Source of the DNA: Proteromonas lacertae
Taxonomy: Eukaryota
Reading direction: 5' to 3'
Assembly (NCBI GenBank): GCA_002245135.1
Contig: NGBS01000013.1
Location: 124,001 to 166,470 of the forward strand
DNA: 42,470 nucleotides
Part shown: piece after piece, positions 16,533 through 42,470 of the stretch
How the letters are laid out: every line of letters starts with the position of its first letter
How positions within the stretch are numbered: the stretch's first letter is position 1
Program-made: the position numbers and the translations under genes
Notes under the pieces: generated by a model
Told to the model about the DNA's origin: nothing
Seen by the model: only the letters and a program-made list of their open reading frames with translations
Database searches by the model: none

Positions 16533-17190
16533 ATTCGATTTATAACACAATGACGAATTTTTAAAACGGATTTATTTTAGTAACATATATTACATCACAG
16601 TCATCACGATTATGATTTTTATCATATCACATCGTTGATATTACAATCAACTACAGTCTTTGAGTTAGAGCACAGCCTTCACTCATTTTATCCTTCATAA
16701 TTTCTTCCAATAAACTATTTGCCTTTCAAATTTCATATGTTTTTCTGCTTTATTTTCTATATTGCTTAATATTCCTTAAAAACAATCGCATTTAAGAAGA
16801 CAACAAACTGAGTAGGATTTTGGTTAATATGTAATGAAGAGCATAATTATAAACTAATACACATGAAACGATAATTACAAGGCAAAATATTTAAATAGTT
16901 TAATATTATGGATAACTTGATATATCTACTATGTTCATAATTATAATGCAATTTGATCTTATTTATTGCATGAATATTACCCATTAGTATCACAGTTTAT
17001 AAAAAAAATACAATAATTAACAAGAAAGATGACAAATAATACACAATAGTGAAGTTTTATTAATGTTAAGAAAATTGGTGCAAAAAAAAAGAGAAAATAT
17101 AATCATATTACCTCTTTTATTCTTATTCAGAGAAAAACTACAAGAAAAAATATTTGGCTTGATTGATTTTGAGATTAAAATTTCTTAAGA

Positions 17191-19797
17191 ATGGAAGAAT
17201 TTGAAAGTATAAGTGATGAATATTCTGTATATTTTACTGTTGTTTAATATGAAATAGTTGATAAGAGTGATAAAGAAGAGTGATTTAAGTGTTTTGTTGG
17301 AAGTTAAAGAAAAGAATAGTAATGATATAAAATATGTGAAGATATATAACAGAGATAAAATGAATTTGAGGTGTCTGGATCGTTTTGTTGAATCACTAGA
17401 GAAATCGAGTAATTTGAGAGTGAGCAATGTATTGATATATGATAAATACATAATTACCGAAAAATATGTGATATTGATAATGAAGAAATATGAGAGTAAC
17501 TTAGAAGAGTTAATGTTTAAGAAAGAGTTAAAAGAGATAGAAATCAATGAGATAATGTTAAAATTGATAAAAGGGATAAAGACATTGGAAGAAAATGGTA
17601 TGATATATAACAATATCAAACTGAATAATATCTTGTTTGATGAAGAAGGAGATATAATAATAGTTGATAATTTAAAATATTTGTTATTGAAAGACAGATT
17701 AAATGATATAAAAAGAGATATGGATGAGATAATATATTTAAGTCCAGAAATATTGAAAGATGGAGAAATGAATGTTGCAAGTGATATATGGAATATAGGA
17801 ATAATCTATTATAGATTATTAAGAAAAGAAATTCCATTTAAAACCAATTCAATATCTGATTTAATAAAATCCATAACAGAATTTAAATATGAAAATAATG
17901 ATAAACTAAACTATAGATACAATAATATATTATCAAGATCACTAACAGTGGAAAAGTATAATCGAATGACAATAGAAGAATTAATATTCAGAATTAGAGT
18001 TAATGTTATTATTGAATTATTGAAGAATAAAGAAAAAGAAAAAGCGAATGAAATGATGGTAGAAATGAGAGAAAACAATTCACAAAAAGAAAACTATAAA
18101 ATGAATGAGATAATAGGAGATTATTATTATGAAAATGTATATTGTTATATATGATGAAATGAATAGAAAGAATACAGAGAAGCAATTCCATATTACGAAA
18201 ATAGATTAGAATATGCTATAACAAATGATCATAAAAAATATTGTTATAATAGTTTAGGATATTGTTATTTTAAATTAGTATTTATAGATTGATATATAGT
18301 GTAGAATGAATATCAAAAATCAATTCAATATTATAAAAAAGCTTTACTATTTTCTACATTAAATGAAGAAAAAGAAATAAATAATCATGGTATAGGAAAA
18401 TGTTATTATAAAATTGTATATATATAATAATTATTCATTAGCATCGTTATATGGAAGCAATTATATATTATAAAATTGCATTAGAATATTCATCAAGAAA
18501 TAAAGATAAAGAATATAATAATAGAATGATAGGCAAATGTTATTACTATTCAGTATGTTAATCATTGTAATAATAAATAGAAAGAATATAGAGAAACAAT
18601 TCCTTACTTAGAAAGTGGCTTAGAATATTCATCTTCAAATAAAAATAAAGCATGTAATAATAATGGATTAGGTTGTTGTTATTTTTTATTAGTATATTTA
18701 TTATTGTAATATTAAGTAGAAAGAATATAGAGAAGCAATTCCTTACTTTGAAAGCGCCTTAGAATATTCATCTTCAAATAAAGAAAAAGCATGTAATAAT
18801 AATGGATTAGGTTGTTGTTATTTTTTATTAGTATATTCACCATTGTAATATTAAGTAGAAAGAATATAGAGAAGCAATTCCTTACTTTGAAAGTGCCTTA
18901 GAATATTCATCAACAAATAAAAATAAAGCATGTAATAATAATTGGTTAGGTAATTGTTATTTTGATTTAGTATATTTATTATTGTAATAATAAATAGAAA
19001 GAATATAGAGAAACAATTCCTTACTTTAAAATTGCCTTAGAATATTCATCATCAAATGAAGAAAAAGCATGTAATAATAATGGATTAGGTTGTTGTTATT
19101 TTTTATTAGTATATTCACCATTGTAATATTAAGTAGAAAGAATATAGAGAAGCAATTCCTTACTTTGAAAGTGCCTTAGAATATTCATCAACAAATGAAG
19201 AAAAAGCATGTAATAACAGAATGATAGGCAATTGTTATTTTGATTTAGTATATTTATTATTGTAATAATAAATAGAAAGAGTATAGAGAAGCAATTCCTT
19301 ACTTTGAAAGTGCCTTAGAATATTCATCAACAAATGAAAAAATACATATATATAACCGAAATCTTGGTAATTGTTATTTTGATTTAGTATATTTATTATT
19401 GTAATAATTAACTAGAAAGAATATGAAGAAGCATTGAAATATTATAATACTTCATTAGATTATTTAGAAAATGAAAAAGATAAAAATCTAGTAAAGGTAG
19501 ATATAGCAGAATGTTATTTAGAATTAGGAAATAAAGAAAAGACAATTTCATATTTGAATGAAGTAAAAGATGAATTATGTGATGATGAAACAAAATATTG
19601 GTATAATAAAGTAATGGGAAAATATTATCTTCAAATTGTATTATTTGATAATTGATATATGATATAAATAGAAAGAAAAAGAAAAGAGTAAAGAATATTT
19701 AGAAGAATCACTCAAATATGTAGATAGTCAAGTGAAGGATGATGAAGAGAAAGAAGAAATAAACAAATTATTAGAAGAATTAAACAAAATGAATTAA
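17191..19797 (+). CDS. Pseudokinase-TPR protein, copy A (~753 aa, 13 exons, 9 modular 111-nt TPR exons)
   Basis: Exon 1 is 17191-17226 and the kinase exon is 17258-18136 (YNNIKLNN in place of HRDxKxxN, DNL in place of DFG, YLSPE, SDIWNIG). 111-nt exons start at 18167, 18305, 18442, 18581, 18720, 18859, 18998, 19137 and 19276. Then a 222-nt exon 19416-19637 and a last exon 19672-19797. All introns are phase 0 and the frame is intact. Confidence 0.9.
18167..19415 (+). repeat. Exon-intron tandem array, ~139-bp unit (111-nt exon plus 26-29-nt intron), 9 units, 6 highly similar
   Basis: AAAGA(A/G)TATAGAGAA(G/A)CAATTCCTTAC recurs every 139 bp from 18581 to 19276. Confidence 0.97.
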
Positions 19798-19888
19798 TTT
19801 CTCTGTACTAATTTTTTCCTTTTTGGTTAATATTTCTTATTTCTTTTGTAAAAAACAAAAATTTTCATTTTTAAAATAAAACTATTAA

Positions 19889-21618
19889 TTACAATCCTCC
19901 AGTTAAAGCATGAGCTTTATTCAATTTCTCTCTAACATTTTCTTCACGACAAGCAGCTTGTCTTTCTGATTTCTGTTTCTTTTCTGCTTCAATCGCTTTA
20001 TTCAATGCTTCTTTCAACATTACACCCAATTTTTCATCTCCATCACATATTCTCTTCAACATAGGTGGTCCAAATCTACAAAACATTTTACCATCCACAC
20101 TTTCACCAATATTCTTCACAAATTTATTGAATTTTCCTTTGTTTGTACTACTAATCCATTCAACTAATTGTTCATGGGTAAATCTAACAGGTGGTATAAG
20201 AATATCATTGCCAGTTCTACAGGAACTTATTTCTTGATTATTTTCTTTCATTGTATTTTCACTTGCACTCATCATTGCAACATGACTTAAAGTGTTTAAC
20301 GTATGTTCTGTATCTTTTGGATTTGGATTAACCGTCGCAATTACTAAAGTTTTGTCCGTTTCATTTTCAAATGCATCTTTCAGCAACATAGTTAATTTAC
20401 TACTTCTATAAGGAATATGATATTTATTATTATCAATGTCATTACTACTACTATCTTTAGATCTTTCTTTAACTATTCTTATACACTCTTTTAGACACAT
20501 TAAGGAGGTGTTTATTTCACTACATTCTCTTCGCTGTTCTGCAGTGTGGAACATGGAATCAATGCTCATTTCACTTCCTGCTAAATCAACAAGTGTTAAT
20601 ACACGAGATTCATTAGGGTATTTGGAGAGTGAAGTGGTGGTGAATATTATACGAATAATTCCATGAGTTCTACTGCTTGATTCATTCACAACTAAATATA
20701 TATATAATGAAAAAGAAAGAAGATAAATTGAGTAGAAAAAACATAGAAGAAAACAATGAAAAAAGTGAATTATCAATAATATATATATATACAAGTTGAT
20801 GAGCTTGTTCTTTCTTTTCTTGATATTTCAATATACTTCATAAATTCATCTTCACTATTCACATTAATATATTTCACCCCTCTAACATGTATTTGCTTAT
20901 CTTCACCTTCTCGTAAAAATACTTCATGATGATGATTAATTACATTATTATTATTATTATTATTATCTTTATAACAATTATTATTATTAATCTTTTTATT
21001 TTTAATATTACCATCTTTTGTATAGTTTTCTTTACAAGTATTTATATCTTCAAAATTAAATAAATCAAAACATTTTTTACCGCTAATTTCAAAACAACAC
21101 AGTGATATAGAAACTTTACCGTTTTTAATATCTTTTTGGTTGAATATATCATGAGCTAAGAAATTCTCTAAATTTGACATTGTGTAAGTTTTGCCTGTTC
21201 CAGTTTGGCCGTACATAATACATGTACCGTTACCTTTGAAACTAAACACATGAGCTATAAGATCGACAAAACTTTCCATATAAATATCTTCATTTGCTGA
21301 TGATTCATCATATACTTTGTTGAATTGATAGGATACTGTGTTTATAAACATACGTTTCATGTCAGCATGCATTCTACAGTCATGGATATAAATGAAAGGA
21401 TCTTTGCAGGAAACAGAATTAAATGCTCCTTTTTTTATTTCATCCGGAAATAAAGGTCTAACTCTTACACAAACAGTAATTGATCCATTTTCTTCTTCTT
21501 CAGTTGCTTCTCTATCCAAATTCTCTCTTATTTTTGATATTTCCCTCATAAAATCATCTCTGAACATTTTTCTGGCTGTTCTTTTATCTAAATTAGCTCT
21601 TGTAATGGCATCTGACAT
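19889..21618 (-). CDS. Kinesin motor protein (kinesin-13-like)
   Basis: ITVCVRVRPL, P-loop YGQTGTGKTYTM, NESSSRTH, LVDLAGSE and HIPYRSSKLTMLLKDAF. One 101-nt intron at 20692-20792. Confidence 0.93.
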
Positions 21619-21707
21619 TTTCAAAATTTTAAAAACTCTCAAACCAAATCAAATTGATGAATCAAGCCAATTTCAAATCAAAAAAAGGCGCCAATCCTTT
21701 AATTCTC

Positions 21708-22161
21708 ATGTCATTCAATAACCAAGGAGTTATTTCAATTGAAAATCAGGAAAACTTTGAAAACAAAGTAATATCTTCTCAGAGTAGTGGTAATAGTTCT
21801 TCTAGTAAACGAAAACCAAATTCATTCTCTAAAGATAAGTTAAAAAAGTCTGATAAACAATTTTTTGGTACTCCATCTTCTACACAATCAACAGTTTCAA
21901 CTCAAAGTGATAGATCAGAAACTTTAAATGATGCATCTTTAGTAATACATGCTATTGAATATGGTTTAGAGGTATATTATTTTATTTATATATTAACTTT
22001 AGGATTTACAGTTAAGGTTGGATGAGACACTGAAATATGTTTTAAGTAAAGACTTTGGTGTTGATACAGAAGCAGAATTCGTATTATTTGAAAAAGAAGA
22101 AGAAATAAAACGATTAGAGAAGAGAGTAGCAGAACTAAAACAAGAAATCAACAAGAAATAA
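21708..22161 (+). CDS. Small uncharacterised Ser-rich protein with a C-terminal coiled coil
   Basis: ATG at 21708 (alternative 21657). Intron at about 21972-22002 leads to ...EEEIKRLEKRVAELKQEINKK* (TAA 22159-22161). Confidence 0.6.
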
Positions 22162-22179
22162 TTTAATATATGTTTTAAT

Positions 22180-23215
22180 TTATAAAAAACTCTTAAGATT
22201 TGGTCTTGACGTGGAATGCTTATCATAATATGTTACTGCCTTATATAATTCAGAGTTTTTAGCAACTATGAAGAAATAATGGCTTTGCATCATATGATAT
22301 TCTTCAAATTCATCAAATATTTCCAATTTTGAGATTCTTTGAATTTCATTAGTATCTAGCACTTCATAATAAATAGTATTCATATCTTCAATTTCAACAT
22401 ATGGATAACCTAACTCAATATACCTTTGTTTCTGGCTTTCTAATGTTGGATATGTTTCAATACTCTGTAATGGACATCCTCGTTCCTATAAAATGATGCA
22501 AATAAAAATAATACTATCAAATTTTGAATCATAACTTGTCCAAATGGATCTTCTGGCTTTATTTGTTCATAAGTAGTAAATACTGAATTAATAAAATGCT
22601 CACTACACCATTTTATCAACGCATTTGATTTTTCTACCGGGATATATACTAACACACATTCGCTAATAAATAAAGTAGGATAATCTTTATTTAATCCAAT
22701 AGAAGTAAATAATAATTCACTTAATTTATCTATATCACATAAATCTACTGATCTTATATAATAATCATCAGATATTGTTAATTCCGTTTGTGATTCGTTT
22801 ATTACAAAGTGTTTATCTTCGCCCCATAATATTTCTAATCTGTCTTTGTGTTTTTCCATTTGCTGTATTCTTTTGTGAATCGAAGGAACTAAATCAACAT
22901 CTACAAATTTTGAAAAGTGTTGTTTCTTTTCTTTCAACTTGAATATTAATGTGTCCAAACCACATCCAAGGTTAACTATTTGATGATTACTTCCAACCGA
23001 TAAAAACTTAGATACAATTATATCAATGGAGGTAACACGAGTATAATAGCCACGGTTAATTAATGGTGATTTTCTACCATTCATTGAAAAGAACTTGATG
23101 TAATTATCTTCTATGTAACCCTTCTTTGTCAAAGAACTATACAAATGATAAACTTCACATACAATTTACACGATGCTGCATCATCAGCGGTTGCACGAAC
23201 AGCAGAATCACTCAT
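22180..23215 (-). CDS. LCMT1: Leucine carboxyl methyltransferase (PP2A methyltransferase LCMT1/PPM1)
   Basis: MSDSAVRATADDAAS, SPLINRGYYTRV, QIVNLGCGLDT, PTLFISECVLVY, YEQIKPEDPFGQVMIQNL and LEIFDEFEEY..MQSHYF. Two introns. Confidence 0.92.
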
Positions 23216-23279
23216 ATTTTAAAATCTTTCAAAATCTACTCAAGTTTTTGCTTGACATTCAATTTTTAAAATCTCGAAA

Positions 23280-24495
23280 ATGTTACAATCAAATGAACAT
23301 TCACTTTATTTAGCAGTAAAAAATACAATAATGGCATATTCTTTATCGTATTTTATGTTGATTATTATGTGTAGTGATAAAACAGTCAAATTCAATGTTT
23401 CTTGCACATCAGATATACTTACATACACTCTGATTGATAATAGTGAGTGGTTGGCTGTTACTGATTTTAATAAAGAGTTATTGATTTTAAATTCAAAAAC
23501 TGGTGAAACAATATCAACAAGGTATGAATAATAGAAATATAAGATGTATATAGAAAAGTACAGAAGAAAATCACTCAGTTAACAGCAATTAAACCACCAG
23601 AAGATTATAAGCCATATTACAAAGAATTTCCTTCCTTTATTCTATTAGCTTCAGATAAAGTGGGTGAAATATTGGCGTACCCATTACCGGATATTACAAA
23701 ACAAGAAAATATGATTTTAGGTCATTGTGCTTCAATAATTACATCATTTGTATATATATATATTATATACGAATAGAGTTTTTCATTAGATAATCATTAT
23801 ATCATTACAGCTGATAGAGATGAAAAAATTCGAATTTCAAATTATCCTAAAGCTACAATAATATCATCATATTGTCTTAATCATACAAAGTATGTGTTTT
23901 GCTTGAGTGTAATAACAGACAATATACTGATTAGTGGTGGAGGAGATGGTAAATTATGTTTATGGAATGTTCCAGAAGGATATTTATTGAAAGAATATCA
24001 GTTCAATGAATTAGTTGGTTTAGATACATCCTTCTCACTCAATTTGATATATTATAATAGAAAGAAGAAATTGTTGTTTGTTTCTCTGTTAAAGTATATT
24101 TTTCTAATTGTTTATTATTATTATGAAATAGTCATCCTGTATTATATATACTTAGTGTAAATGAAGATAACTATGATTTAGCATTAGTAAACAAGGTTAA
24201 TTATGAATCTTCGATTATTTCACTGTCATTTACTAATGATGATATTGTTTTCTGCTCTACCAAAGGAGGTGAATATATTTACACGAATTCAATTAATACA
24301 GGAGAAAGAATTGAAAATGAAATAATCAAATCGATCAGAGACAATCTGAAAGAATATTATGATGTATTGACCAATTACAATAATGATAGTCAATTCCATG
24401 GAGAGCTTGAAAAGGAGCAATTAAAAGTGAGATATGATCCTATTGCCTTAAAAGGACAGACTACTACTTTAACTCCATATCCTGAGAGTAAATAA
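23280..24495 (+). CDS. WDR4: tRNA m7G46 methyltransferase non-catalytic WD40 subunit (WDR4/TRM82)
   Basis: LASDKVGE, ILGHCASIIT, IITADRDEKIRISNYP...IISSYCLNHTKYV and LISGGGDGKLCLWN across short-intron exons. TAA at 24493-24495. Confidence 0.88.
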
Positions 24496-24590
24496 AGTAA
24501 TTAAAGTTGTTTATTTTTGTGTTGAAACATTGCTTATTTGAGTGTTTGAATAAAAATACATTTCAAGCCAAACATTGATATTTTAGAAAA

Positions 24591-26023
24591 ATGGTGTTTA
24601 ATCCTTCTTGGAAACAGTTAACAATAGCGTCCTCTATTGTGTTCTGGCTTCATGGTTCAATGGTGGCTATGGCATATAAGACTAGATATTTTAAGGAGTT
24701 CACAACATTTACCTTTGAGTTAATAGCATTTTTTCTTGTTGCTTTTGTAGTAGTGCAGAAGAATAAAACAATGGTAAGATTATTAGCAGCTATGGCGTAT
24801 TTTTAATAAATTATTTATAACTTAGGTATATTATTTGTTCAGCTTTTACTATGACAATCATGTCTGCAGCTTGTTTCTATAGAAACCCATCACAATTACC
24901 AATTCTACCAGATTATGGTTTTGACTTAATTCCAGTAATTACTCATGTAAAATTACCATTTGGGTTATATATAAATGGTCAAACAATACCAGACATACTA
25001 TTTCCAGTATTGATGTTATCAACTGTAACATTTGTTTTAATTCAAAGTAACAGGTTGATAGTGTTAAGAAGACTAGCTTTGATATGGGGTACAACAATGT
25101 TTGTAAGAACCTTCACATTATTATGTACAGCTATGCCTGATGCTTCTCCTATTTGTCAAGAAATTACAGCAGGAACTGTATTACTAAATCAAATGTCTAT
25201 CACTAATATCCTAAATCGTGCATTCTATATAATGTTAGGTGATGGAACATTTACATGTGGAGATTTAATATTTAGTGGTCATACTACCGAACTGATGGTT
25301 TGTGGAATGGTTTGGCATACTTATTATCCAATCAAAAAGAGAGGAAGTAATGTGATCAAAGCATTAGTTTGGTTTGTAATAATAATATTATTATATGTAC
25401 TAATTGGATGTAGAAGTCATTATACGATAGATTGTGTTTTAGCAGTGTATATAAATATAACAATATGGAATTTATACCATCGATTCGCTCGAGATGTTCA
25501 AATGGGAATTAAAAGCAATTTATTATGGTTTTTGGATGATTTGATTTATAGTTTTATAAACTGGTTTGAACAAGATGAAAATGATTTGAATGAATCGAGA
25601 ATGTTGAATAAAAATATGTTTAATAATGAATTTGATGGAAATAATAACAACAATAGTTATGAGTTGGTTATATATTTATTATGTAATAATAAAATAGAAG
25701 AGATTAAAGAATTGATTAGTAAAATGGATGTGAAGAATTTGAATATATTAAAAAATGGTTTGAAATATATGAATGAGAGTTATTTGAATGAAATTTATAA
25801 GTTGTATAGAAGCGAAGAGGAATTGATTAATGTAAATGAAAAGATAGATGAAGTGTCTAAAGTTATTTCAATAAAAGAAAATGAAATAAAAGTTGAAGAA
25901 GATAAGATCAAAAGAACAAGTGAATTGTATGAAAGTAAAATTAGAGAAGATGAATTATTGAAGAATAATCTAATGCAATTCTTAAATGATGGTAATATAG
26001 AAGATTGTTTGAAATTACTGTAA
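24591..26023 (+). CDS. Sphingomyelin/IPC synthase-family (PAP2_C) enzyme, paralog 1, with coiled-coil tail
   Basis: LPDYGFDLIP, CGDLIFSGHT and RSHYTIDC catalytic motifs; multiple TM segments; intron at 24797-24826. Confidence 0.88.
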
Positions 26024-26216
26024 ACTATTTAATTAGGCACGATAATAATAATTATTTTAAATAAATGACATGTGTGATTTATGATTGTTTGTTAGATTTT
26101 AAATTATCATCCTATATAAATTTTAATATTTGAAATATAGGTTTGATTCTTATCAAATCAAAAAACACATCAAGCCAAACTTTCATTTTTTTAATTTTGA
26201 CTTTCTAAGAATTCTG

Positions 26217-27737
26217 ATGATTTTTTTTGTTGAAAACTTAGGAGATTTAACTCGTTATGTATTATTTACTGTAGTTATTGGGTATTTAATTCAAGCATGG
26301 TTTAAATCTCGTGGAGATGTCATGAGAGTATTTATAGCTGTAATGTATAATCAATAATATAATATATAAAATAGATATATATTTTTCGCTGCTTATTTAA
26401 TGGTGTTAGCTTCAGCAACAGCATTTTATAGAAATTTAGCTCAAATAGTCACATTGCCTGATGTAGGATTTGAATTAGTACCAAAACTAACTCTGTTACA
26501 TCTTCCATTCGGATTAACAATAACCTATGACAAAATAATAGAAGTATTTTTACCATTTTTAGTGACAATAACAACAATATTTGTTTTGTGTAGAAAAGAC
26601 AGTTTAATTCTATTAAGAAGGATAACAGTGATATGGGGTACATTAATGTATTTACGTACAGTCACTGTAATATGTACATCAGTTCCAGATCCATCTAATA
26701 TCTGTAAAGATATAGATCCATCACTATTAAAAATTTCAAATTTATCATTTTTTGAAATGATGAATAAAATAATGATTGTTATATTACCAATCAGTACAGG
26801 TAATATAACATGTGGAGATATGATATTTAGTGGACATACAACTTTAATTGTATTATGTGGAATGATATGGCATACTTACTTCATCAATGATAAAAAACTA
26901 AATAATATTCATCATCAATTACATAATAATAAATATTACTATAGAATAATTACAAGTATAATTTGGATTATTGTATTTACACTTTTATATATATTAATTG
27001 GTGTTAGAATGCATTATACAATTGATGTGTTATTAGGTATTTATATGACAATAACTTTATGGAATTCATATCATCGTGTAGGAAGAGATGTTCAAATGGG
27101 AATGAAATTCAGTACAATGTGGCTAATAGATGGATTTATTTATCCATTTGTAAAATGGTTAGAAATTGATGATGATGATATATCTAATACATTGTTATAT
27201 AAGAATGATTCTATTAATTCATTTGAATTAATTACCACTATTTGTTCACTTTCACCTGATGTTTTCAAAGAATTTATTAGTAAAATAAATGGAAATACTT
27301 TGATAAGATTACAAAGGGAGATTAAATTATGTAAAGAGAATTATTTGAACGAAAATTTCAAATTGGCGAAGACTGAAGAAATTGTGGAAGATAATAAAGA
27401 AAAATTGACAAAATTGACAAATGAAAAAATGATATTGGAGGAAGAATTAAAAGATAGAAAGTATAAGAATGAGTTGACTGTGAAATTATATGAAGCTAAA
27501 ATAAAGAGGAATGAAAAGATAAAGAATGAGTTGAAGGAGATGTTGAAGAAAGGCAATGTGAAGGAGAGTATAAAATTAGCAAAACAATTGAATCAAAGTG
27601 ATGAGAATAAAGTAGAAAATAAAATTGATGCTAATGAGTTGTTGAATAAGATTGAGATATTGGAGAATGAGATGAAACATATCAAAGAAAGTAGAAATGA
27701 ATTTTTGTTGAAGAAATCTGAAGAAGAACATAAGTAA
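26217..27737 (+). CDS. Sphingomyelin/IPC synthase-family enzyme, paralog 2, with coiled-coil tail
   Basis: LPDVGFELVP, CGDMIFSGHT and RMHYTIDV; intron at about 26346-26374, at an equivalent position to paralog 1. Confidence 0.88.
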
Positions 27738-27944
27738 TTTATTGATTTTTTTTTGATAATTTTAGTTTGTTATGGATAAAGAAAGAGTATATGTGATGTA
27801 AAATAAGATTTTTAAATAATTTGGTGTTTGAAAACTTCATCCCGCCTTTTAAATCATTAGTTTAATAAGGTTAAGAGTATAAATTAGCCTCATTTTTCAT
27901 TCATTTCTTCTTCTTCATATATAGCATATATACACATATAAAAA

Positions 27945-29218
27945 ATGGAAGAAATTGGAATCACTGATTTTGAAGACAAGCAGCAGGAAAAGCAGAATGA
28001 AAACTTGCCATTTGAGATAATTAAAATACAAGTATAGTTATTGCATTTATAAAAATGCCATAGAAATTAATATCATCAGGAAAAATATATGAAGCAGTAA
28101 AAGAGCTTGAAAGACAACACGAATTTATACATTACCAAGAAGAATACTTGAAGGATGAGATAAAGAATTTAAACAGAGAATACATACGTGCTTTAGATGA
28201 AATAAGCCGAATAAAAACCGTACCACTTACAATAGCTCAATTTATGGAAATGGTTGACACAAACTACGGTGTAATAGTCACATCATCTGGTACAAACTAC
28301 TATGTGAGAATATTAAGTACAATTGATCGAGAATTATTGAAACCAAATACAAGTGTCTTAGTTCATAGAACATCTCACGCTGTAGTTGATATTTTACCTG
28401 CTGATGCTGATACAACCATCCATTTAATGGAAGAAAAACCTGATGTAACTTACGAAGAAATAGGTGGATTGGATATACAAAAGCAAGAGATGAGAGAAGC
28501 TGTTGAATTACCATTAACTCAGGCTGATTTGTATAGACAGATTGGTATTGATCCTCCACGTGGTGTATTGATGTATGGACCACCAGGAACTGGTAAGACC
28601 ATGTTAGCTAAGGCTGTGGCTAATGCAACAACTGCATCTTTTATTCAAGTGGTTGCATCAGAATTCGTGCAGAAATATTTAGGTGAAGGACCTAGAATGG
28701 TTAGAGATGTGTTTAAATTAGCAAAACAACGATCGCCTTGTATTATTTTCATAGATGAGATAGATGCCATTGCTACGAAGAGATTTGATGCTCAAACTGG
28801 TGCTGATAGAGAAGTACAACGTGTACTATTAGAATTGTTGAACCAAATGGATGGATTTGACCAAACTACGAATGTGAAGGTTATAATGGCTACTAATAGA
28901 CAAGATACATTGGATCCTGCTATATTAAGACCAGGAAGGTTAGATAGAAAGATAGAATTCCCTAATCCCGATCGAAGGCAAAAACGTTTAGTTTATCAAG
29001 CATGTACTAGTAAAATGAATTTATCTGAAGAAGTAGATTTAGAAGATTTTGTAAATAGGCCAGAAAAGATATCAGCAGCTGAAATTTCTTCAATCTGTCA
29101 AGAAGCCGGTCTACAAGCAGTAAGAAAGAATAGATATGTTATTATTTCAAAAGATTTTGAAAAAGGTTATCAAAAGACAGTCAAGAAAGCTGATACAGAT
29201 TATGAATTTTATAAATAA
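27945..29218 (+). CDS. RPT3: 26S proteasome regulatory AAA-ATPase subunit RPT3 (6B)
   Basis: [43 protein letters not shown] and [14 protein letters not shown], ending YEFYK. Exon 1 is 27945-28031 and the intron is 28032-28063. Confidence 0.97.
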
Positions 29219-29340
29219 GATATTAAAAAAGATATTAATTTCTAAACTTATTTTTTCTGTGTTTAGTTTTACAGATAAGATGTTCAATCATAAGTTTTGA
29301 AGTTTTTGAGGAAAATAAAATGTAACGAATTTCAGTCAAG

Positions 29341-29350
29341 TCAAGCTTGA
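29341..29350. promoter_or_regulatory. Palindromic instance (TCAAGCTTGA) of a recurrent upstream TCAAGC/GCTTGA motif
   Basis: The same hexamer occurs shortly upstream of many start codons in this window: 6943, 9272, 9283, 13938, 17157, 21662, 23250, 24563, 26170 and 34843. Confidence 0.55.
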
Positions 29351-29391
29351 ATGTTGTAATACTTTTTTTTAAAAGATGATATATTAAGAGA

Positions 29392-30637
29392 ATGAAAAAC
29401 AGCTCTCCACCAATAAAACCAGATCATAGCTATGATCTTATAAACCAGTCATCTAAAAATCTTTTTATGCTGCCTAATGTACCATTAACAGATGATTCCC
29501 TCTGTGACTTAAAAGATGTTGAAAGATGTGAGACATTTAGCTTAGCAGCAAATGTAAAAATAACACCAATAAAAACCTCAAAAATTACAAATCCTCAAAG
29601 AAGTTTTTGTCAAACACCTGGTCTTCTTACTCCCACAAAGTCATGTTGTTCATCAAATTATAGCTCAATGACCCGTCATTCTAGAGTAAGTACTGTTTTA
29701 TTAAGTATGGGTTGTAGAAGGTCATTTGCTAAGGCTTCACAACAATTAAGTTCAGGTATACGTACTGCTAAAAGTTCTAATCCTAAAATTGATGCTATTA
29801 TTAAAATTCAAAAAATCTGTCGTCATCATTTAGTAATGACTAAATTCCGACAATATGAGAGATATAGAGAAGAAAGTCGAATTATAACCCATCAAGAGTG
29901 TAGAAATAGATTAACAGATTTAAATGAGTTATTTCAAGAGCCATCTCTACAATCATATAGACAAAGGCAAGTAGATAAAGCCAAAAAAGAAATAATGAAC
30001 TGCGGAGATCTAATTCGAGAAAAGAAATTGACAGAAACTGATGAATATAGTTTATTAAAAGAACTAATCAGTTGTTTTTCACTCTCTTCGTGTGAGAATA
30101 TATTTATAGAAGATATTATCTTGTTAATTATTACAATTTTGAGATTACCAGTTACAGTGGGAGAATTGGCAAATGATAAGGATGAGGTAAGGTGTATTAC
30201 TGTATTGTATAAAGGTAAACATCCAATTGTACACTTGGATGACTTTTATAAATGGATTTGTGAATGTATTTATTATTATTATTATTATTATAGTTCGTAA
30301 ACACAAGCCATCTCCATTTGGCAAATTATACCAAAAGTTTTTATTCTTTTTACATGAAGATATTCCAATTGATTTTATTATGTATGTATAATAGTATGTT
30401 TATTATTATTATTATAGTAATTATATGCAGTTGAAACAAAACCTATATGATATAGCAATCACACTAATGAATTATGATAAGAAAAATCCTCCTTTGTTCA
30501 AATGTAAAGTATGTGAAAATTACTCTAATTGTTTTCCTCTTCCAGTGGCAAGACATATAGTGAGGTGTAAAGTAGAATCGACAAAGAAGAAAAAGAAACA
30601 GATTAATTTTGTTAAATCAAAAAACAATTTCTTATAA
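29392..30637 (+). CDS. Uncharacterised protein with an IQ-like motif and a C-terminal Zn-finger-like motif
   Basis: AIIKIQKICRHHL (IQ-like) and FKCKVC...ARHIVRC. Two short introns near 30266-30293 and 30382-30417 link ORFs 29392 and 30425. Confidence 0.6.
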
Positions 30638-30876
30638 TAATAATAATAATAATAATAGTGGAGATGAATGTGTTATTTCTCTCTCTTTCTTCCAGTATTA
30701 TATATGTATATTTTATGGATTAGTCATTTAATTGTTATTATTTTAGATCATTATGTTTGTTTTTAATTATTTTATCTATCACTCTCTCTATTTATATATT
30801 TTACCCTTTCTAAAGCAACAAAAAAACAAATTTAAAAATGCCTCCCGATATATTTCATTTGTTGTTTAAACACTAT

Positions 30877-31508
30877 TTAATTCTTTAATGGAAATTGGAA
30901 TGAAACATCACGTTGTGTTAATTTCTTATATAAAACTGAGAATGTTTCTAATTTAGTTTCTACAACGGTTTGTTCTGATGGATCTAAATAAACTTTTAAT
31001 AATTTGCTTCCATCAGTTCCATATCTAGTTCTCTTACCAACGATTTCAGTTGGGAATACTAAATCTTCTAAAATAGCTTCATGAACATTGGTGATTGTTC
31101 TACTTCTTGGTAATGGACCATGGTTCTTTGTTCTCTTCCATGCCTTACCTAAGATGGTTCTTTGGGCAACAATAACAACATGATGATCACTAGTAAATAT
31201 TATTATATTAATTTAAATACGCGAATTTCTTTTCTAATTCTCTTACTAAAGTCTTTTGGATTTTGTGGAATGCTTTTAATAATGGGCATGGTACGAAAAG
31301 AATGATAGCTTTTTGTCCTCCAGCAATATCTTGTTCTTTAGCACTTACAATGTGTAATTTTGATAACTCTTCTTTGATTTCAGAGTTTCCATCCTATTTA
31401 AATTAACTAATTTCAATAAATACTTGGAATAGCTTGGATTTCTTGAGCTACTTTTAATTCAAAAGCATCTGGTTCTTGTTTTCCTGGTTTTACTATTTTT
31501 GAAGACAT
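30877..31508 (-). CDS. RPS7: 40S ribosomal protein S7 (eS7); missed by the ORF track; apparent +1 indel near 31426
   Basis: [22 protein letters not shown]...[16 protein letters not shown]...[40 protein letters not shown]...[14 protein letters not shown]. Introns at 31394-31423 and about 31190-31220. Confidence 0.95.
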
Positions 31509-32045
31509 TTCAAACTATTAAATATAAATAAATAAGAATGAGATTGAATAATGAGTTAATAATAGAACTAAAAAGTCCAGTGGATGGAATAATATAACAT
31601 AAAAACAAAACGTTAGTATTTAGATTGAAGTATTGAGAGAGAAGGTAATATATGATAAATACATATTAGTGGGAGGGATGCAAAATATTTGTATTAATGC
31701 CTATTAGATTGAATGATCAATTGATGTTTATTTCTTTACCCCTTAAAGCTTGTTCAATCAAACTTTTCGTTCTTTTTTAATTTCTTCTTTATCTCATAAA
31801 CTACTAGATTGTGGAATTAAATAAAATTACACTTGCTATATATTGATTATTGTGAATAGATTGAGTTGGTTATTTTTGTTTTTAATTCAATTCTTGAATA
31901 TCGATTTTGAAAATAAATTGGTTTTTACACTTTGATTGAATAAAACAACATTAAGAAGGAATGTTTTCGATTGATATAACAAATAATTATCATTATCGAT
32001 TATATGGTGTACCAAAATTTTCAATAGAAACAGTTTTTTATAGAA

Positions 32046-34722
32046 ATGGAAGAAACTGGTAGAGAGACAGAAGATTATTACAAAATAATCAATGAATTGA
32101 AAGAAGAAAATAGACAACTTAAAACTAAAGTATAATACTGACTATAGTGTGATAGATTGAAAATCAAGCCTTTCTTCTCAAGAAGACAGAACAGAAATTG
32201 AAGAATGCTAGTAATGGAGGAAGAAAATCCACAGCAAGCGCAAAGAAATCTATAATAGGAAGTGAAGGAGGTGATAAAAGTAGAAGGACTGATGAAAACC
32301 AACAATTAAAGTATTAAATAATGAACTAATATGTAGTAAAACAATATTAAAGTTGAAAGAAGAAAATGAGCATTTACAAAGTTATGCAAAGAAACTAGAG
32401 AATGAACAATTGGATTTAAAAGACTCAGTAACACAACATCTAACAGAATTGGCTGAAGAGAAAAGAAAAGTAGTAGAATTAAATGAAAAAATAACCAGAA
32501 ACGAATTAGACTTGAAAATCCAAAAATCAACAATAGATGAAAAGGATCAACAAATCAAAAAGCTTGAAGATGACTTGTTTAAAAGTAGTAAAACTGTATT
32601 AATGGATTATAACCCAGAAAATGAAGAAGAAAAGACAATATATGAAAAAACAATAAAAAATATGAAAATTCAAATGATGAGTAGCAATAGTGATAATTAT
32701 AATATAATAAATGAATTACAGACTGAATTATATATGACAAAATTGACATTAAATAAACAAAAATTAGAGTATATATTGTTATATATAATTTCATTTTATT
32801 TTATATTTAGTTATGAAGAGGAAATTCAAAATTGTTTATTATCATTAGAAATACAAAAGACAGAAAATGAAAAGAAATATGAAGATTTAAAGAATGAATA
32901 TTTGGATTTTAAGAATAAAGAAAATAAAAATAAAGAAATTCTATTGGAGGAACAAAATATAATAATCAAATCATTACAATCTCAGTTTGATTTGTATAGA
33001 AATACAGCAGAATATTTATTTCAAAAAGAAATATCTCGTTTAAAGGAAATAATCAAAAATCAAATGATTAAATATGAGTTAGAAATAACAAAGTTATGTA
33101 ATATGAAAGAATACCATTATGAACAGATAATATCGAGTAAAGATAGTAAAATAATGAATTTAATTGACGGAACAGATATTCAAGTATATATATTAATAAT
33201 TAATTTTAATCATATAGAGTTTAATATTGAAATATGAAAGTGAAATAAATGATATAAAAAAGAGTTGTAGAGAAGAGACGAATAGAATAGTGGATAATTT
33301 ACAACGTTCTCAAAGTGAAGAAATTTCTAGATTAAATAATGATATATTCAGCCAACAGGAAATAATAGAAAATTTAAAAGAAAACATACAAAGTTTAAAT
33401 GTATTTATATATTTATTTAATCTATAAATAGAATGTACAATATAATTTAAATAATCAAATCAAAAGAAAAGATCAAACTATTCACAAGCTTGAAGATCAA
33501 TTATCTCATGAAAGAGAAACATTAACATCCAAAATCAACGAACAGTCTAAGAATATAAATAATTTAGAGATAAAAATACATCATTTAAAACATTTATTAT
33601 TACAATATAAATTAAATGAAAAAGGTGAAACAGATGAATCTTTAAAGATGTTAACAAAATATTTGAATAATGAAATGATAAAGTTGAATGATGATTATAA
33701 TATATTAGTTGATAATCATAAATATAATGAATATGAAAGAAACGAACTGATGAGATCTAATCGATTTTTAGAATCTCAAAATGAAAAATTGAAAAATGTA
33801 TATTACATATAATAATATCTTAAAAATAGGCTTTAGAATCTCAAACAAGAGAATTTAACAATCTAAACAAAACTTTGAAAAGTGTAATACAACATCGAGT
33901 TAATACATTAAATACAATCAATGACAATGAAAAAAGTAAAAGAATATTATCATTCGAAAAAGATCAAATAAAACCAATTTATCATGGAAGTGGAATTGGA
34001 ATACCCAAAGCCCTTGAAACGATAAGAGTATTACTAATAATAATATTTATATAATGTATAGAGATATACCAAATCTCCAATTCCTACTCCCATTAATAAA
34101 CCTATTAATACAAACATTAGAAGTATAAACTCTTTATTATCCAATAATGATTCTTATCTTAATACAGAACAACAATATAATCCTTCTCCACAACCCCAAC
34201 CTCCAAAATCATCTTCTTCACATATTTCTGCTGCTATTACAACTACAAATAGAAATAAAATATTGAAAAATAAAGTAATTAGATTCAAAGAACCAAAGAA
34301 AGTATAATATGATATGAATATTAATAATAATAAATTAGATGAAAGAAAGAAAAGAAGAAAATGAAAGTGAAGTAATAGATAGTAAAACAATCGAAATATT
34401 AGAAAAAGGATTAATTTCAATAAAACATTTTAACAATATAAGTAAAGCGTATTCGAATGGTAATTATGATTTGAAGAAAGATAGAGAAGGTAATTTAAAT
34501 AGAGTAGTATTAAATAATGAAATTAATGATAATGATTTTTTGAACAGTTCAGGAAAAGTTAATACGATGAATAATAATAATAGTGATGATAATGAAAGTG
34601 AAGAAAATGAAAATAGAAAGATATTTGATAATAATAAGAGTATAGATATTTTAAAGAATGGTCGAAATAATGTTAGTAATGAAATTAAAGAAAACTCAAA
34701 TTTGAGAGCTTTATCAGTTTAA
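32046..34722 (+). CDS. Large multi-exon coiled-coil protein, uncharacterised
   Basis: ATG at 32046. Successive short GT-AG introns link ORFs 32353, 33227 and 34339. Heptad-rich E/K/L sequence. Confidence 0.7.
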
Positions 34723-34876
34723 TATTTATTATGTTATGTTTTTTGTACGGATTATCTTAATTGATCATAATTTTTAATAGTAATTTTCACAGTTTATGTA
34801 AATATGAAGTATTTACATAAAAAAACATTAAAAAAATATTTGGCTTGATTGATTTTGAGATTAAAATTTCTTAAGA

Positions 34877-37800
34877 ATGGAAGAATTTGAAAGTATAAGT
34901 GATGAATATTCTGTATATTTTACTGTTGTTTTATATGAAATAGTTGATAAGAGTGATAAAGAAGAGTGATTTAAGTGTTTTGTTGGAAGTTAAAGAAAAG
35001 AATAGTAATGATATAAAATATGTGAAGATATATAACAGAGATAAAATGAATTTGAGGTGTTTGGATCGTTTTGTTGAATCACTAGAGAAATCGAGTAATT
35101 TGAGAGTGAGCAATGTATTGATATATGATAAATACATAATTACCGAAAAATATGTGATATTGATAATGAAGAAATATGAGAGTAACTTAGAAGAGTTAAT
35201 GTTTAAGAAAGAGTTAAAAGAGATAGAAATCAATGAGATAATGTTAAAATTGATAAAAGGGATAAAGACATTGGAAGAAAATGGTATGATATATAACAAT
35301 ATCAAGCTGAATAATATGTTGTTGAATGAAGAAGGAGATATAATAATAGTTGATAATTTAAAATATTTGTTATTGAAAGACAGATTAAATGATATAAAAA
35401 GAGATATGGATGAGATAATATATTTAAGTCCAGAAATATTGAAAGATGAAGAAATGAATGTTGCAAGTGATATATGGAATATAGGAATAATCTATTATAG
35501 ATTATTAAGAAAAGAAATTCCATTTAAAACCAATTCAATATCTGATTTAATAGAATCCATAACAGAATTTAAATATGAAAATAATGATAAACTAAACGAA
35601 AGATACAATAATATATTATCAAGATCACTAACAGTGGAAAAGTATAATCGAATGACAATAGAAGAATTAATATTCAGAATTAGAGTTAATGTTATTATTG
35701 AATTATTGAAGAATAAAGAAAAAGAAAAAGCGAATGAAATGATGGTAGAAATGAGAGAAAACAATTCACAAAAAGAAAACTGTGAAATGAATGAGATAAT
35801 AGGAGATTATTATTATGAAAATGTATATTGTTATATATGATGAAATGAATAGAAAGAATACAGAGAAACAATTCCATATTACGAAAATGGATTAGAATAT
35901 GCTATAACAAATGATCATAAAAAATATTGTTATAATAGTTTAGGATATTGTTATTTTAAATTAGTATTTATAGATTGATATATAGTGTAGAATGAATATC
36001 AAAAATCAATTCAATATTATAAAAAAGCTTTACTATTTTCTACATTAAATGAAGAAAAAGAAATAAATAATCATGGTATAGGAAAATGTTATTATAAAAT
36101 TGTATATATATAATAATTATTCATTAGCATCGTTATATGGAAGCAATTATATATTATAAAATTGCATTAGAATATTCATCAAGAAATAAAGATAAAGAAT
36201 ATAATAATAGAATGATAGGCAAATGTTATTACTATTCAGTATGTTAATCATTGTAATAATAAATAGAAAGAATATAGAGAAACAATTCCTTACTTAGAAA
36301 GTGGCTTAGAATATTCATCTTCAAATAAAAATAAAGCATGTAATAATAATGGATTAGGTTGTTGTTATTTTTTATTAGTATATTTATTATTGTAATAATA
36401 AATAGAAAGAATATAGAGAAGCAATTCCTTACTTAGAAAGTGCCTTAGAATATTCATCTTCAAATGAAGAAAAAGAATATAATAATAATGGATTAGGTTG
36501 TTGTTATTTTTTATTAGTATATTTATTATTGTAATATTAAGTAGAAAGAATATAGAGAAACAATTCCTTACTTAGAAAGTGCCTTAGAATATTCATCTTC
36601 AAATAAAAATAAAGCATGTAATAATAATGGATTAGGTTGTTGTTATTTTTTATTAGTATATTTATTATTGTAATAATAAATAGAAAGAATATAGAGAAGC
36701 AATTCCTTACTTAGAAAGTGCCTTAGAATATTCATCTTCAAATGAAGAAAAAGAATATAATAATAATGGATTAGGTTGTTGTTATTTTTTATTAGTATAT
36801 TTATTATTGTAATAATAAATAGAAAGAATATAGAGAAGCAATTCCTTACTTAGAAAGTGCCTTAGAATATTCATCTTCAAATAAAAATAAAGCATGTAAT
36901 AATAATGGATTAGGTTGTTGTTATTTTTTATTAGTATATTTATTATTGTAATAATAAATAGAAAGAATATAGAGAAGCAATTCCTTACTTAGAAAGTGCC
37001 TTAGAATATTCATCTTCAAATGAAGAAAAAGAATATAATAATAATGGATTAGGTTGTTGTTATTTTTTATTAGTATATTTATTATTGTAATATTAAGTAG
37101 AAAGAATATAGAGAAGCAATTCCTTACTTTGAAAGTGCCTTAGAATATTCATCAACAAATGAAGAAAAAGAATATAATAATAATGGATTAGGTTGTTGTT
37201 ATTTTTTATTAGTATATTTATTATTGTAATAATAAATAGAAAGAATATAGAGAAGCAATTCCTTACTTAGAAAGTGCCTTAGAATATTCATCTTCAAATG
37301 AAGAAAAAGCATGTAATAATAATGGATTAGGTCGTTGTTATTTTTTATTAGTATATTTATTATTGTAATAATAAATAGAAAGAATATAGAGAAGCAATTC
37401 CTTACTTAGAAAGTGCCTTAGAATATTCATCAACAAATGAAAAAATACATATATATAACCGAAATCTTGGTAATTGTTATTTTGATTTAGTATATTTATT
37501 ATTGTAATAATTAACTAGAAAGAATATGAAGAAGCATTGAAATATTATAGTACTTCATTAGATTATTTAGAAAATGAAAAAGATAAAAATCTAGTAAAGG
37601 TAGATATAGCAGAATGTTATTTAGAATTAGGAAATAAAGAAAAGACAATTTCATATTTGAATGAAGTAAAAGATGAATTATGTGATGATGAAACAAAATA
37701 TTGGTATAATAAAGTAATGGGAAAATATTATCTTCAAATTGTATTATTTGATAATTGATATATGATATAAATAGAAAGAAAAAGAAAAGAGTAAAGAATA

Positions 37801-37900
37801 TTTAGAAGAATCACTCAAATATGTAGATAGTCAAAGAAATGATGATGAAAAGAAAGAAGAAATAAACAAATTATTAGAAGAATTAAACAAAATGAATTAG
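34877..37900 (+). CDS. Pseudokinase-TPR protein, copy B (~864 aa, 16 exons, 12 modular 111-nt TPR exons)
   Basis: Colinear with copy A at offset 17686 before the array and 18103 after it; the difference is 417 = 3 x 139. 111-nt exons start at 35853, 35991, 36128, 36267, 36406, 36545, 36684, 36823, 36962, 37101, 37240 and 37379. TAG at 37898-37900. Confidence 0.9.
35853..37518 (+). repeat. Exon-intron tandem array, ~139-bp unit, 12 units, 9 highly similar
   Basis: Exact 139-bp periodicity from 36267 to 37379. Confidence 0.97.
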
Positions 37901-38366
37901 TGATTTTCTTATTTCTTTTTCTTTTTTCAAAATTTTGATAAAACCAATAATATAAAAATAGTGTTGTATTTTTCGGTCAAAAAATATAGGTTTACATATA
38001 GGTCAAAACCTATATCTTTAGCTTGACCTTTACCTTCCTTATACTAATTATTAGTTGACCTCCTATTGAACATGAGTTAAGAAGCATATAATCTAACCAT
38101 ATATACAAAATTAATGTTTTATACATCATCTTTCAAATATCAAATTTGACCTTCGGTCGATGCACTTTTTATATTACTATTATTATATATTATAGAGGAT
38201 ATGAGTCAACAGGAATTTTAGTGTTCCTATACCCAAAATATCCAGTTCTGTTGAATAATTTTGCGGAAAAGTTCTACATCATAATCAGTATAGCTGTACA
38301 AATCTATAGTTTTTCTCTACAGTAGCAAAGCCCCGTGGTAGAACAGCTCACTACATCTATAAGTCA

Positions 38367-38381
38367 CTAACCCTAACCCTA
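38367..38381 (+). repeat. Interstitial telomere-like repeat, 2.5 x CCCTAA
   Basis: CTAACCCTAACCCTA in non-coding, otherwise very C-poor DNA. Confidence 0.6.
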
Positions 38382-38583
38382 GTTAGATCTATTTAATCAT
38401 TATTATGTAATTATTTTTTTATAATATTTGATGCATAAATCATCAAAAACATCAAGAATTTATCAAATGAATGATAAATCATCAAATAAATCAATTTTAT
38501 TTTAACAATATAAAAATTGCATCTTGAATTCATTCGACATTTTCCTGAACTTTTCAGCATAAAATATTTTTTGCTTTATTAAC

Positions 38584-39237
38584 ATGTCTCACTTACATCA
38601 AATTGTTTACGTATCTGATAGTGATAGTGATACAGATAGTGATTATGAGAGAGATATTGATAGTATCTCTAATCCAAAAATCAGAAAAATTTGTAAGACA
38701 ATTAATTTAGAAGATAAGGCTGCTGGTATCAAAAGACCAAAATATAGTATAACTTATATTATATTATAATTCATAGGTATACCAGTCACAGGTCGTCCAT
38801 TCAATCCCTTCAACCCTTATGGTTTATCTATTAAGATTGAATCACCCAATGGTGAGCCACCAAAAGATGAATCACCATTATACTCACCAACAACTCCACC
38901 TGATACAGAATCGAATGTTAGGCGTTTAATCAACTTTACTGTTCAAGAGCCTCCTCCACCACAGGACACTTTAACTTATGAGGAGATAAAGAAGCTGAGA
39001 AACGAGAGTTTAGTTGGTAATAGAATTAGAAACGGAAGAAAGAGAGCAAAGGCTGCCAGAGAAGAGTTATCGTTCAAAGCAGCAGCTGACGTAAATTTAG
39101 CTTTGGATCTTCAAAGGTATTATGATACAGTTTTTAAGAAGAAGGAGTTGGAAGATAAGTTGTTTAAGCATCATAACTTAGATACAAAACTGTTGAAGAA
39201 TATCACTAAGAAGGTATTACAGATAAAAAATAATTAA
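38584..39237 (+). CDS. Orphan protein (~207 aa): Ser/Asp-rich N-terminus, Pro-rich middle, basic helical C-terminus
   Basis: A 30-nt intron at 38747-38776 joins ORF 38584 to an open frame (SIPVTGRPFNPFNPYG...RNGRKRAKAAREELSF...) ending TAA at 39235-39237. Confidence 0.7.
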
Positions 39238-39281
39238 CTTTTATTATCAATACTTACTATAATTTGAAATTGTTTTATATT

Positions 39282-39600
39282 GAAAATTCATCTCTCATAG
39301 TATGATCTGTATATATATAATCTTTATTATTTTTGATCTATTATATTTGTCTATGTATAAGATTCTATTATTGATAATATCAAGTTAAAAGAAGAAGATT
39401 TAATATATTGATGAAATAGAAAAATTGAATAATCAGTGAGAAAATTCATCTATCATAGTATGATCTGTATATATATAATCTTTATTATTTTTGATCTATT
39501 ATATTTGTCTATGTATAAGATTCTATTATTGATAATATCAAGTTAAAAGAAGAAGATTTAATATATTGATGAAATAGAAAAATTGAATAATCAGTGAGAA
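39282..39600. repeat. Non-coding tandem duplication, 158-bp unit x2
   Basis: GAAAATTCATCT(C/A)TCATAGTATGATCTG... starts at 39282 and 39440; only one mismatch seen. Confidence 0.95.
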
Positions 39601-39689
39601 CTTTGTTTTGTCTTTATTTTATAATTGAATTTTTCGATAAGATTTTCATTTTCTTTTTTCTTGTATTTTTTGATTATTAAAATAAAAGA

Positions 39690-40403: not shown

Positions 40404-40511
40404 CACTTATATAAAAACATTGGTTTTCATTTATTCATTTTATTAGTTTCTTTTATATTTTCATATTAATTTCACTAGTCTTTTTCTTACAAACTATTTA
40501 TTATTTATAAC

Positions 40512-41403: not shown

Positions 41404-41540
41404 CAATACGCATGTAATTATAATTTTAAGTTTATTGATTCTATATAATGTATTATACTATTGGGTAAAATCATCTGTATAATATACAAAAAGTATTATT
41501 CCATGTTTTCTTTAGTTATTTTTATTTTTTTGTTTATAAA

Positions 41541-41897
41541 ATGCAGAGTTCATATAAGTTTTTATCATGGTTATACACAATATTTGAATCACTAAAAAGA
41601 AAAATATTTTCTCAGTCAAACGAGCAACAACCGCAATCTGAATCTTTAGCTGATCAATTGAGATATAATGAAATGCTAAAACATGTTAAAGATGAAAAAT
41701 TGAGAGAAAAAAGAAGAAGACATAATATACGAGCTAGGAACGGATTAGATGAAGGATTCATTTACAGCGAGGATCCAGAAGAATTTGATGAACTAATGGA
41801 TAGGTACATTACAAAGCATGATATAAAAGCAAAAAAAGAAATAAAAGAAAAATTTGGATTGGACTTAGACAAAGTAATCTACGGATTATATCATTAA
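41541..41897 (+). CDS. Orphan 118-aa intronless protein
   Basis: ATG after AAAA with natural-looking composition; no family recognised. Confidence 0.55.
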   Translation: MQSSYKFLSWLYTIFESLKRKIFSQSNEQQPQSESLADQLRYNEMLKHVKDEKLREKRRRHNIRARNGLDEGFIYSEDPEEFDELMDRYITKHDIKAKKEIKEKFGLDLDKVIYGLYH

Positions 41898-42437: not shown

Positions 42438-42470
42438 CTCACCTTTAATATCATGAAAAAGATAACTGAT

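Follow-up and report, generated by a model that had tools for sequence, protein, structure and literature searches.

In a 42,470-nt stretch of Proteromonas lacertae DNA (contig NGBS01000013.1, positions 124,001–166,470; hereafter the window), two genes on the forward strand, gene A (17191–19797) and gene B (34877–37900), each join a kinase-fold exon to an array of tetratricopeptide repeats (TPRs). The kinase domain is likely non-catalytic, judging from its motifs, and the inner repeats of the array have been remodelled between the two copies. With about even confidence, we propose that these genes encode a sensor or adaptor, in which a non-catalytic kinase carries a TPR array whose inner units are copied and patched, changing both the length and the lining of a predicted binding groove.

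Gene A comprises 13 exons encoding 753 aa after intron removal, and gene B 16 exons encoding 864 aa, with both frames open to the stop codon. All 27 introns (12 in gene A, 15 in gene B) have the form GTAT...TAG, span 26–34 nt and are in phase 0, and retention of any of them produces a stop or a frameshift; 28 nt is the length of 6/12 in gene A and 9/15 in gene B. In our splice model, exon 1 of gene A (17191–17226) encodes 12 aa, while exon 2 (17258–18136 in gene A, 34944–35822 in gene B, with 11 nt different between them) encodes the pseudokinase domain, followed in gene A by a C-terminal helical hairpin resembling a degenerate first repeat, as seen with Pfam, an alignment to PLK2, STK33 and MSK1, and a structure model. 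Exons of exactly 111 nt follow, nine in gene A and twelve in gene B, and then a two-unit exon of 222 nt and a capping exon. Exons 3–5 (18167–18552 and 35853–36238) are three TPR units of 37 codons each that are old, diverge from one another and are fixed between the copies. Exons 6–10 of gene A (18581–19247) are near-identical mosaic inner units, and their counterparts in gene B are eight strongly homogenised inner units, exons 6–13 (36267–37350). The final 111-nt unit, the 222-nt exon and the cap form exons 11–13 of gene A (19276–19797; splice model and Pfam) and 14–16 of gene B (37379–37900; splice model). Tandem Repeats Finder returned a 139-bp period at 18473–19433 and 36159–37536. An earlier, sequence-only reading of this DNA had described two near-identical genes joining a kinase-fold exon to a TPR array, built of 37-codon exons and phase-0 introns often of 28 nt in a 139-bp module, nine in one copy and twelve in the other. 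The spliced frames, Pfam and the repeat period confirm this description, with the exon numbers as counted in the assembly. Its further statement that almost identical flanks surround differing, frame-keeping modules also held, with 23/2069 flank nucleotides different and 21/21 exons of 111 nt intact.

The splice model fits the intron style of this genome, because the housekeeping genes S7, Rpt3 and CDPK in the window have GTAT...TAG introns of the same type (27–44 nt). The genetic code is standard and the window has a G+C content (GC) of 25.4%. Among 120 of the 2838 matches of the proteasome subunit Rpt3, the named full-length proteins with the highest identity (75–79%) come mostly from oomycetes and ochrophytes; three plant proteins have higher bit scores at 64–70% identity. 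The likely source lineage is a divergent stramenopile. Low GC combined with short introns brings Blastocystis and related organisms to mind, but the available reports give 39–55% GC and 30-nt introns for human subtypes, and 21–23% GC and longer introns for tortoise isolates (PMC12129017; PMC5608401).

The kinase exon matched Pfam Pkinase (E = 9e-23) and was aligned to PLK2, STK33 and MSK1 after a search of PDB sequences. A structure model from a 34-sequence alignment reached a predicted local distance difference test (pLDDT) score of 89.5, superseding an earlier five-sequence model (pLDDT 46). Its Foldseek kinase matches had template modelling (TM) scores of 0.59–0.71 and included MARK, AMPK, Aurora and MELK kinases. 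The HRD motif reads YNN (17606–17614 in gene A), replacing the catalytic Asp by Asn; DFG reads DNL, keeping its Asp; and the Gly-rich loop reads KKSDLS, with its glycines gone. The beta3 Lys, the catalytic-loop Lys and Asn, the DFG Asp, SPE and DxWxxG are retained, and K121, N124, D137 and E164 are nearly invariant across the 34 sequences. All five core relatives that span these motifs carry YNN, DNL and SPE, the last as CPE in one. A kinase fold that has lost the equivalent of Asp166 is a pseudokinase by the sequence definition, which bears out the status given to it before.

Kinases with Asn at Asp166 that keep Lys72, Asn171 and Asp184 are described as binding ATP with one cation and having little or no activity, and HER3 and the JH2 domain of JAK2, with the identical substitution, retain weak activity (PMC4718504). 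The kinase domain here shares that Asn and the Lys72, Asn171 and Asp184 equivalents with HER3 and JAK JH2, so by analogy it may bind ATP, a prediction weakened by the absence of the Gly-loop glycines. It also differs from those proteins in its Ser/Thr-kinase-like sequence, with best matches to PLK, STK33, MARK and AMPK, and in that its chain contains neither a receptor nor a tandem active kinase.

The first three relatives found were 57–60% identical to the kinase exon, and relatives at 41–60% identity conserve the pseudo-active site. Among the best 150 matches used from a profile search, 25, among them the three in the profile, have a single domain and carry Asn at the catalytic position. We placed 55 hand-chosen matches of the 150, four earlier matches, both window kinases and, as a composition control, the window CDPK in a quick maximum-likelihood tree of 62 rows. 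The window pair grouped with five core relatives with a support of 99 in the Shimodaira–Hasegawa-like approximate likelihood-ratio test (SH-aLRT), within a 33-row set of degenerate kinases (SH-aLRT 97) that was separate from active and tandem kinases. This grouping is provisional because branches are long, rows were pre-selected and the search was quick, with a careful one unfinished.

Members of the degenerate set carry other tails. Leucine-rich repeats (LRRs) follow the kinase in P0169, P0196, P0227 and P0268, and weakly in P0272; a SPRY-like tail was indicated by a weak Pfam match in P0270 (E = 0.007), to which P0228, P0205 and P0313 are similar by BLAST. These LRR- and SPRY-like-tailed kinases mostly have Asn for the catalytic Asp, and several were seen in many assemblies. 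P0169, P0196, P0227, P0228, P0270, P0205 and P0313 apparently represent an undescribed kinase family. The ten family proteins that we looked up (10/10) occur only in Logan assemblies, and the ESM Atlas returned generic kinase clusters and one kinase-LRR cluster. We found no paper on this kinase family or on a kinase-TPR architecture in the main texts of the openly licensed literature, and no related loci in metagenome and genome contigs with alignment A1, nor with P0228. Two candidates were set aside. P0001, a TPR-bearing protein among four weak matches of the kinase exon to longer proteins, is 24% identical with intact HRD and DFG and is not a relative; locus L001, found with P0196, encodes an unrelated active kinase. 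A separate clade of the tree holds proteins with two to four tandem degenerate kinase domains (P0134, P0136, P0138, P0139, P0140, P0146, P0161 and P0170), which are rich in residues with AT-rich codons, and some of which end in DUF285/BspA-type repeats.

Among the single 111-nt exons scanned, 6/7 matched TPR families weakly (E = 5e-5 to 0.03, below the gathering cut-off) and one did not match. Weak matches are expected because each unit is split across two repeats. In the Pfam register the intron separates helix A of a TPR from its helix B, and each 111-nt exon runs from helix B through a loop, which exceeds the canonical length by three residues, to the following helix A. The equation of one exon with one TPR unit therefore stands as one repeat period per exon, but not as one canonical repeat. 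The first four and the last of the 111-nt exons are fixed between the copies; besides the shared exon 6, four inner exons in gene A and seven in gene B differ. Exons 3–5 are 38–40 nt apart from each other and 0–2 nt from their gene B counterparts. Within gene B, units B7, B9 and B11 are identical and B7–B13 differ by 0–9 of 111 nt. The inner units of gene B alternate on a 278-bp dimer period, with a mean distance of 3.2 nt at lag 2 and 6.6 nt at lag 1, and gene A has the same two-unit period (10.0 nt against 16.8 nt).

The inner units are mosaics. Across 15 units, the four-gamete test found 87/703 site pairs incompatible and a minimum of six recombination events, all within the exon. In a permutation test like the pairwise homoplasy index (PHI), neighbouring sites were more compatible than permuted ones, with p-values of 0.04, 0.02, 0.06 and 0.09 for four sizes of test window. 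Of the 28 variant bases in 13 inner units, 25 are already present in the fixed outer units, compared with 25% by chance. Unit A10 has three parts, in which a 14-nt tract identical to A5 precedes an 18-nt tract identical to A11. These patterns suggest that unequal crossover, patch gene conversion, or both, acting on the 139/278-bp DNA period, are the likely makers of the mosaics. The exon shuffling suggested in the sequence-only reading was not borne out, because the breakpoints of these patch mosaics, from at least six events, lie inside exons and so speak for crossover or conversion rather than intron-mediated movement. Inverted (minus-strand), orphan or pseudo-exon copies were absent from the window. 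The shared phase 0 of the introns reflects a single inherited ancestral intron position, and the layout of one exon per unit arises incidentally when one exon is copied in tandem with one short intron, and is not something the mechanism needs. Frame-keeping is no evidence of selection either, because any in-register 139-bp crossover, which carries 111 nt of coding sequence, keeps the frame.

Where the inner units differ, the changes concentrate on the predicted groove. TPR ligand contacts have been placed at positions 2, 5, 6, 9, 12 and 13 of the repeat (PMC1261162). Read at these positions, exons 6–10 of gene A give CNGCFL, CNGCFL, CNWNFD, CNGCFL and CRMNFD. Among the 10 distinct inner peptides, 5/6 groove positions vary compared with 10/31 others (Fisher p = 0.03), and radical changes affect 4/6 groove positions and 2/31 others (p = 0.003). 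When the mask was rotated through all 37 registers, the true register was the best for radical change. The sole two private non-synonymous changes, at position 6 (G to W) and position 9 (C to R), are both in the groove. This variation fits a variable predicted binding groove, as reported for Podospora TPR-containing NOD-like receptors (NLRs; PMC4986451), and by that analogy reshuffled repeats would be likely to change what the array binds. In the sensor or adaptor that we propose, the TPR superhelix would bind a peptide or protein in its groove, and the pseudokinase would serve either as a switch that binds ATP/Mg or as a docking surface, relaying a signal to an active kinase, by analogy with HER3, JAK JH2 and pseudokinase scaffolds. 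Unequal crossover and gene conversion among units would alter groove length and chemistry, and a variable groove could serve the recognition of a changing partner, whether foreign (virus, bacterium or host) or the organism's own.

Several observations weigh against this proposal. For plain variability, the true register was matched by two others in the mask rotation (3/37 equal). Groove positions are reported to be the most variable ones in all TPRs (PMC1261162), and because of this purifying selection on structural positions would by itself also lead one to expect the groove bias. The groove changes travel in a few linked patches and are not independent events, and shared ancestral bases may explain part of the 25/28 overlap with the outer units. 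In gene B, 7/8 inner units read CNGCFL or YNGCFL, a near-uniformity that looks like homogenisation. We compared the ratio of non-synonymous to synonymous changes per site (pN/pS), which was 1.1 for inner units and 0.92 for flanks. This uncorrected ratio comes from small counts, is inflated by AT bias, and fits relaxed constraint no less well than diversification. With pN/pS about 1, positive selection is not demonstrated despite the clustering in the groove. No TPR was seen in the seven closest relatives, which are 97–261 aa long, some apparently running into an intron. Those with LRR or SPRY-like tails show no variation in repeat number, and their allelic variation is small and conservative. 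Each of three clusters has a fixed length, with 12/250 kinase and 3/156 tail positions variable in P0196 (12/13 members), 4/235 and 6/213 in P0228 (13 of 15 listed members), and 0/250 and 2/355 in P0169 (4/4 members).

These points lend themselves to a neutral account, in which a recent duplicate serves as a weakly constrained scaffold, its 139-bp repeat slips or crosses over as a minisatellite, in-frame products survive and the resulting diversity is unselected. We regard this as a real possibility, although a less probable one than not. It would explain a pN/pS of about 1 wherever tested, the homogeneous array of gene B and the stability of relatives with other tails. Recent tandem duplication has also occurred elsewhere in the window, over 327 bp (96%) and 158 bp (99%), and Giardia GL4 Nek kinases duplicate rapidly, which their authors ascribe in part to weak selection (PMC3218828). 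What it accommodates less well is that the 21 exons of 111 nt, like every splice site, are intact, without a stop or frameshift, that of 37 registers the true one gives the strongest peak of radical change at groove positions, and that the pseudo-active site is kept across relatives only 41–60% identical. If the neutral account were true, the genes would cleanly illustrate how tandem copying, with breakpoints that fall within exons, gives rise to exon-per-repeat genes.

Genes A and B are, from their sequences, a recently duplicated pair. Identity between the units (17145–19797 and 34831–37900) begins 46 nt ahead of the ATG and ceases at the stop codon. The copied segment is the size of one gene, still contains its introns and lies among unrelated neighbours; scans of stretches around it, each region taken alone, showed no terminal inverted repeats. 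Origin as an mRNA retrocopy is ruled out because the introns are retained. The 23 flank differences occur in clusters (p = 0.0005, with 7 close pairs), a pattern suggestive of conversion tracts donated by additional paralogs that lie beyond the window.

A mis-assembly that created the second copy or the extra units of gene B is very improbable. Exact repeats of 232–255 nt within gene B and an exact stretch of 508 nt shared by the two genes speak for it, and short-read assemblies of such arrays have been described as unreliable (PMC12222747). However, the copies have different unique neighbours and 23 differing positions, the longest exact internal repeat of gene A is 138 nt, and each gene has private units. 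Doubt is thus limited at most to the unit count of gene B, which could be off by one unit or dimer if the assembly came from short reads, because of its exact internal repeats of up to 255 nt.

The array has counterparts in fungal NLRs whose WD, ANK or TPR repeats show high internal conservation, such as Podospora het-d/het-e and Pa_2_10340 (PMC4986451, PMC12222747). As those reports describe that type, it shares with the array here repeats more than 85% identical over at least 100 aa, concerted evolution, copy-number differences and concave-face variation. The inner units here exceed 85% identity over at least 100 aa and evolve in concert, with exchange between repeats. Unlike the fungal receptors, the window genes have no NACHT or NB-ARC and no effector domain, and introns split their repeats. 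Compared with NLRs and signal transduction ATPases with numerous domains (STAND proteins) in general, they have the C-terminal superstructure-forming repeat sensor, as the TPR array, and no central NB-ARC or NACHT NTPase, exon 2 being kinase only and the rest TPR-like. Ectocarpus NB-ARC-TPR and ROCO-LRR genes are described as having one repeat period per phase-0 exon and paralogs near-identical outside the array, both seen here as well, in an organism that is likely a stramenopile too (PMC3341825). Those receptors have an NTPase or GTPase that is lacking here, and their TPR exons are of 42 codons with introns long enough for inactivated exons, compared with 37 codons and 28-nt introns here (PMC3341825). 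Whole-exon movement with inactivated or inverted exons in introns, as in Ectocarpus, was not seen with our 26–34-nt introns and within-exon breakpoints. The account of Ectocarpus LRR-kinases describes no shuffling in them, whereas the kinase-fold gene here is remodelled (PMC3341825). The likeness to known receptors claimed earlier therefore stands for the fungal high-internal-conservation repeats and the brown-algal exon-per-repeat layout, but not for inverted or orphan exons in the Ectocarpus style, which are absent from the window. The nearest precedent for a degenerate protist kinase with repeats is the Giardia Nek GL4 pseudokinase-ankyrin group, for which a scaffold role has been proposed (PMC3218828). 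It shares with the window genes a lineage-specific degenerate kinase joined to repeats and recent duplicates more than 98% identical; it is set apart by its repeats (ankyrin, compared with intron-delimited TPR units here) and its lineage.

An immune role is a plausible hypothesis by analogy with these systems. In its strongest form, these genes would belong to a large family that generates an immune repertoire by targeted or somatic exon shuffling or skipping, with many variants per culture and the pseudokinase in place of the NLR NTPase. We consider that form distinctly unlikely. It could draw on the symmetric, all-phase-0 exons, on flanks that are almost the same while the array between them is remodelled, a pattern shared with two Ectocarpus ROCO genes of 13 and 17 exons (PMC3341825), on the clustered flank differences that suggest more donors, and on the LRR and SPRY-like tails of sister kinases. 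Tails of these two kinds are typical of immune sensors. On the other hand, the breakpoints lie within exons, the window has no inverted, orphan or pseudo-exons, and no effector domain or adjoining effector gene was seen. Moreover, 28-nt introns are too short for spare exons, and intron definition would make exon skipping unlikely.

A broader version of the sensor or adaptor proposal joins the window genes to their relatives as a repertoire built on a pseudokinase hub. One Asp-to-Asn family would carry interchangeable LRR, SPRY-like and TPR tails, and its TPR branch would re-deal groove residues by 139-bp recombination, tracking pathogens or partners. We think this doubtful as a whole, but if true it would amount to NLR-like recognition without an NTPase in a stramenopile protist lineage. 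To our knowledge, almost nothing is known of non-self recognition in heterotrophic protists. The theme of a sensor with reshuffled repeats is already known from fungi and brown algae, where the reports describe an NTPase or GTPase scaffold (PMC4986451, PMC12222747, PMC3341825), and the pseudokinase-based variant is new. With swappable LRR, SPRY-like and TPR tails it would widen the known signalling hubs of such sensors. Each 139-bp unit carries one whole groove helix, which makes typing by long reads and swaps in binding assays easy.

Other features of the window lie outside the two genes. Beside gene B, an orphan block of open reading frames (ORFs) at 38000–42470 gave no useful Pfam match among four ORFs scanned, and may be a mobile or viral insertion. 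A Cys-rich ORF at 39681–40403 has a duplicated 72-codon CxxC unit, the 158-bp tandem duplication (99%) lies at 39282–39600, and a TAACCC-like telomeric doublet lies near 38368. The motif TGTTTGTT occurs nine times in the window compared with 3.4 expected, a count reached in 1/100 shuffles. Because its matches are mostly inside reading frames and genes A and B have their own stop codons, we did not base a genus assignment on it; 3/9 matches, at 130, 26086 and 30754, lie shortly downstream of ORF ends, in a way reminiscent of the Blastocystis polyadenylation motif. The 327-bp duplication (96% identity) is internal to an acidic, Glu/Asn-rich ORF at 7821–8837. At 24821–27737 lie two diverged PAP2_C (sphingomyelin-synthase-like) genes in tandem, which have coiled-coil tails.

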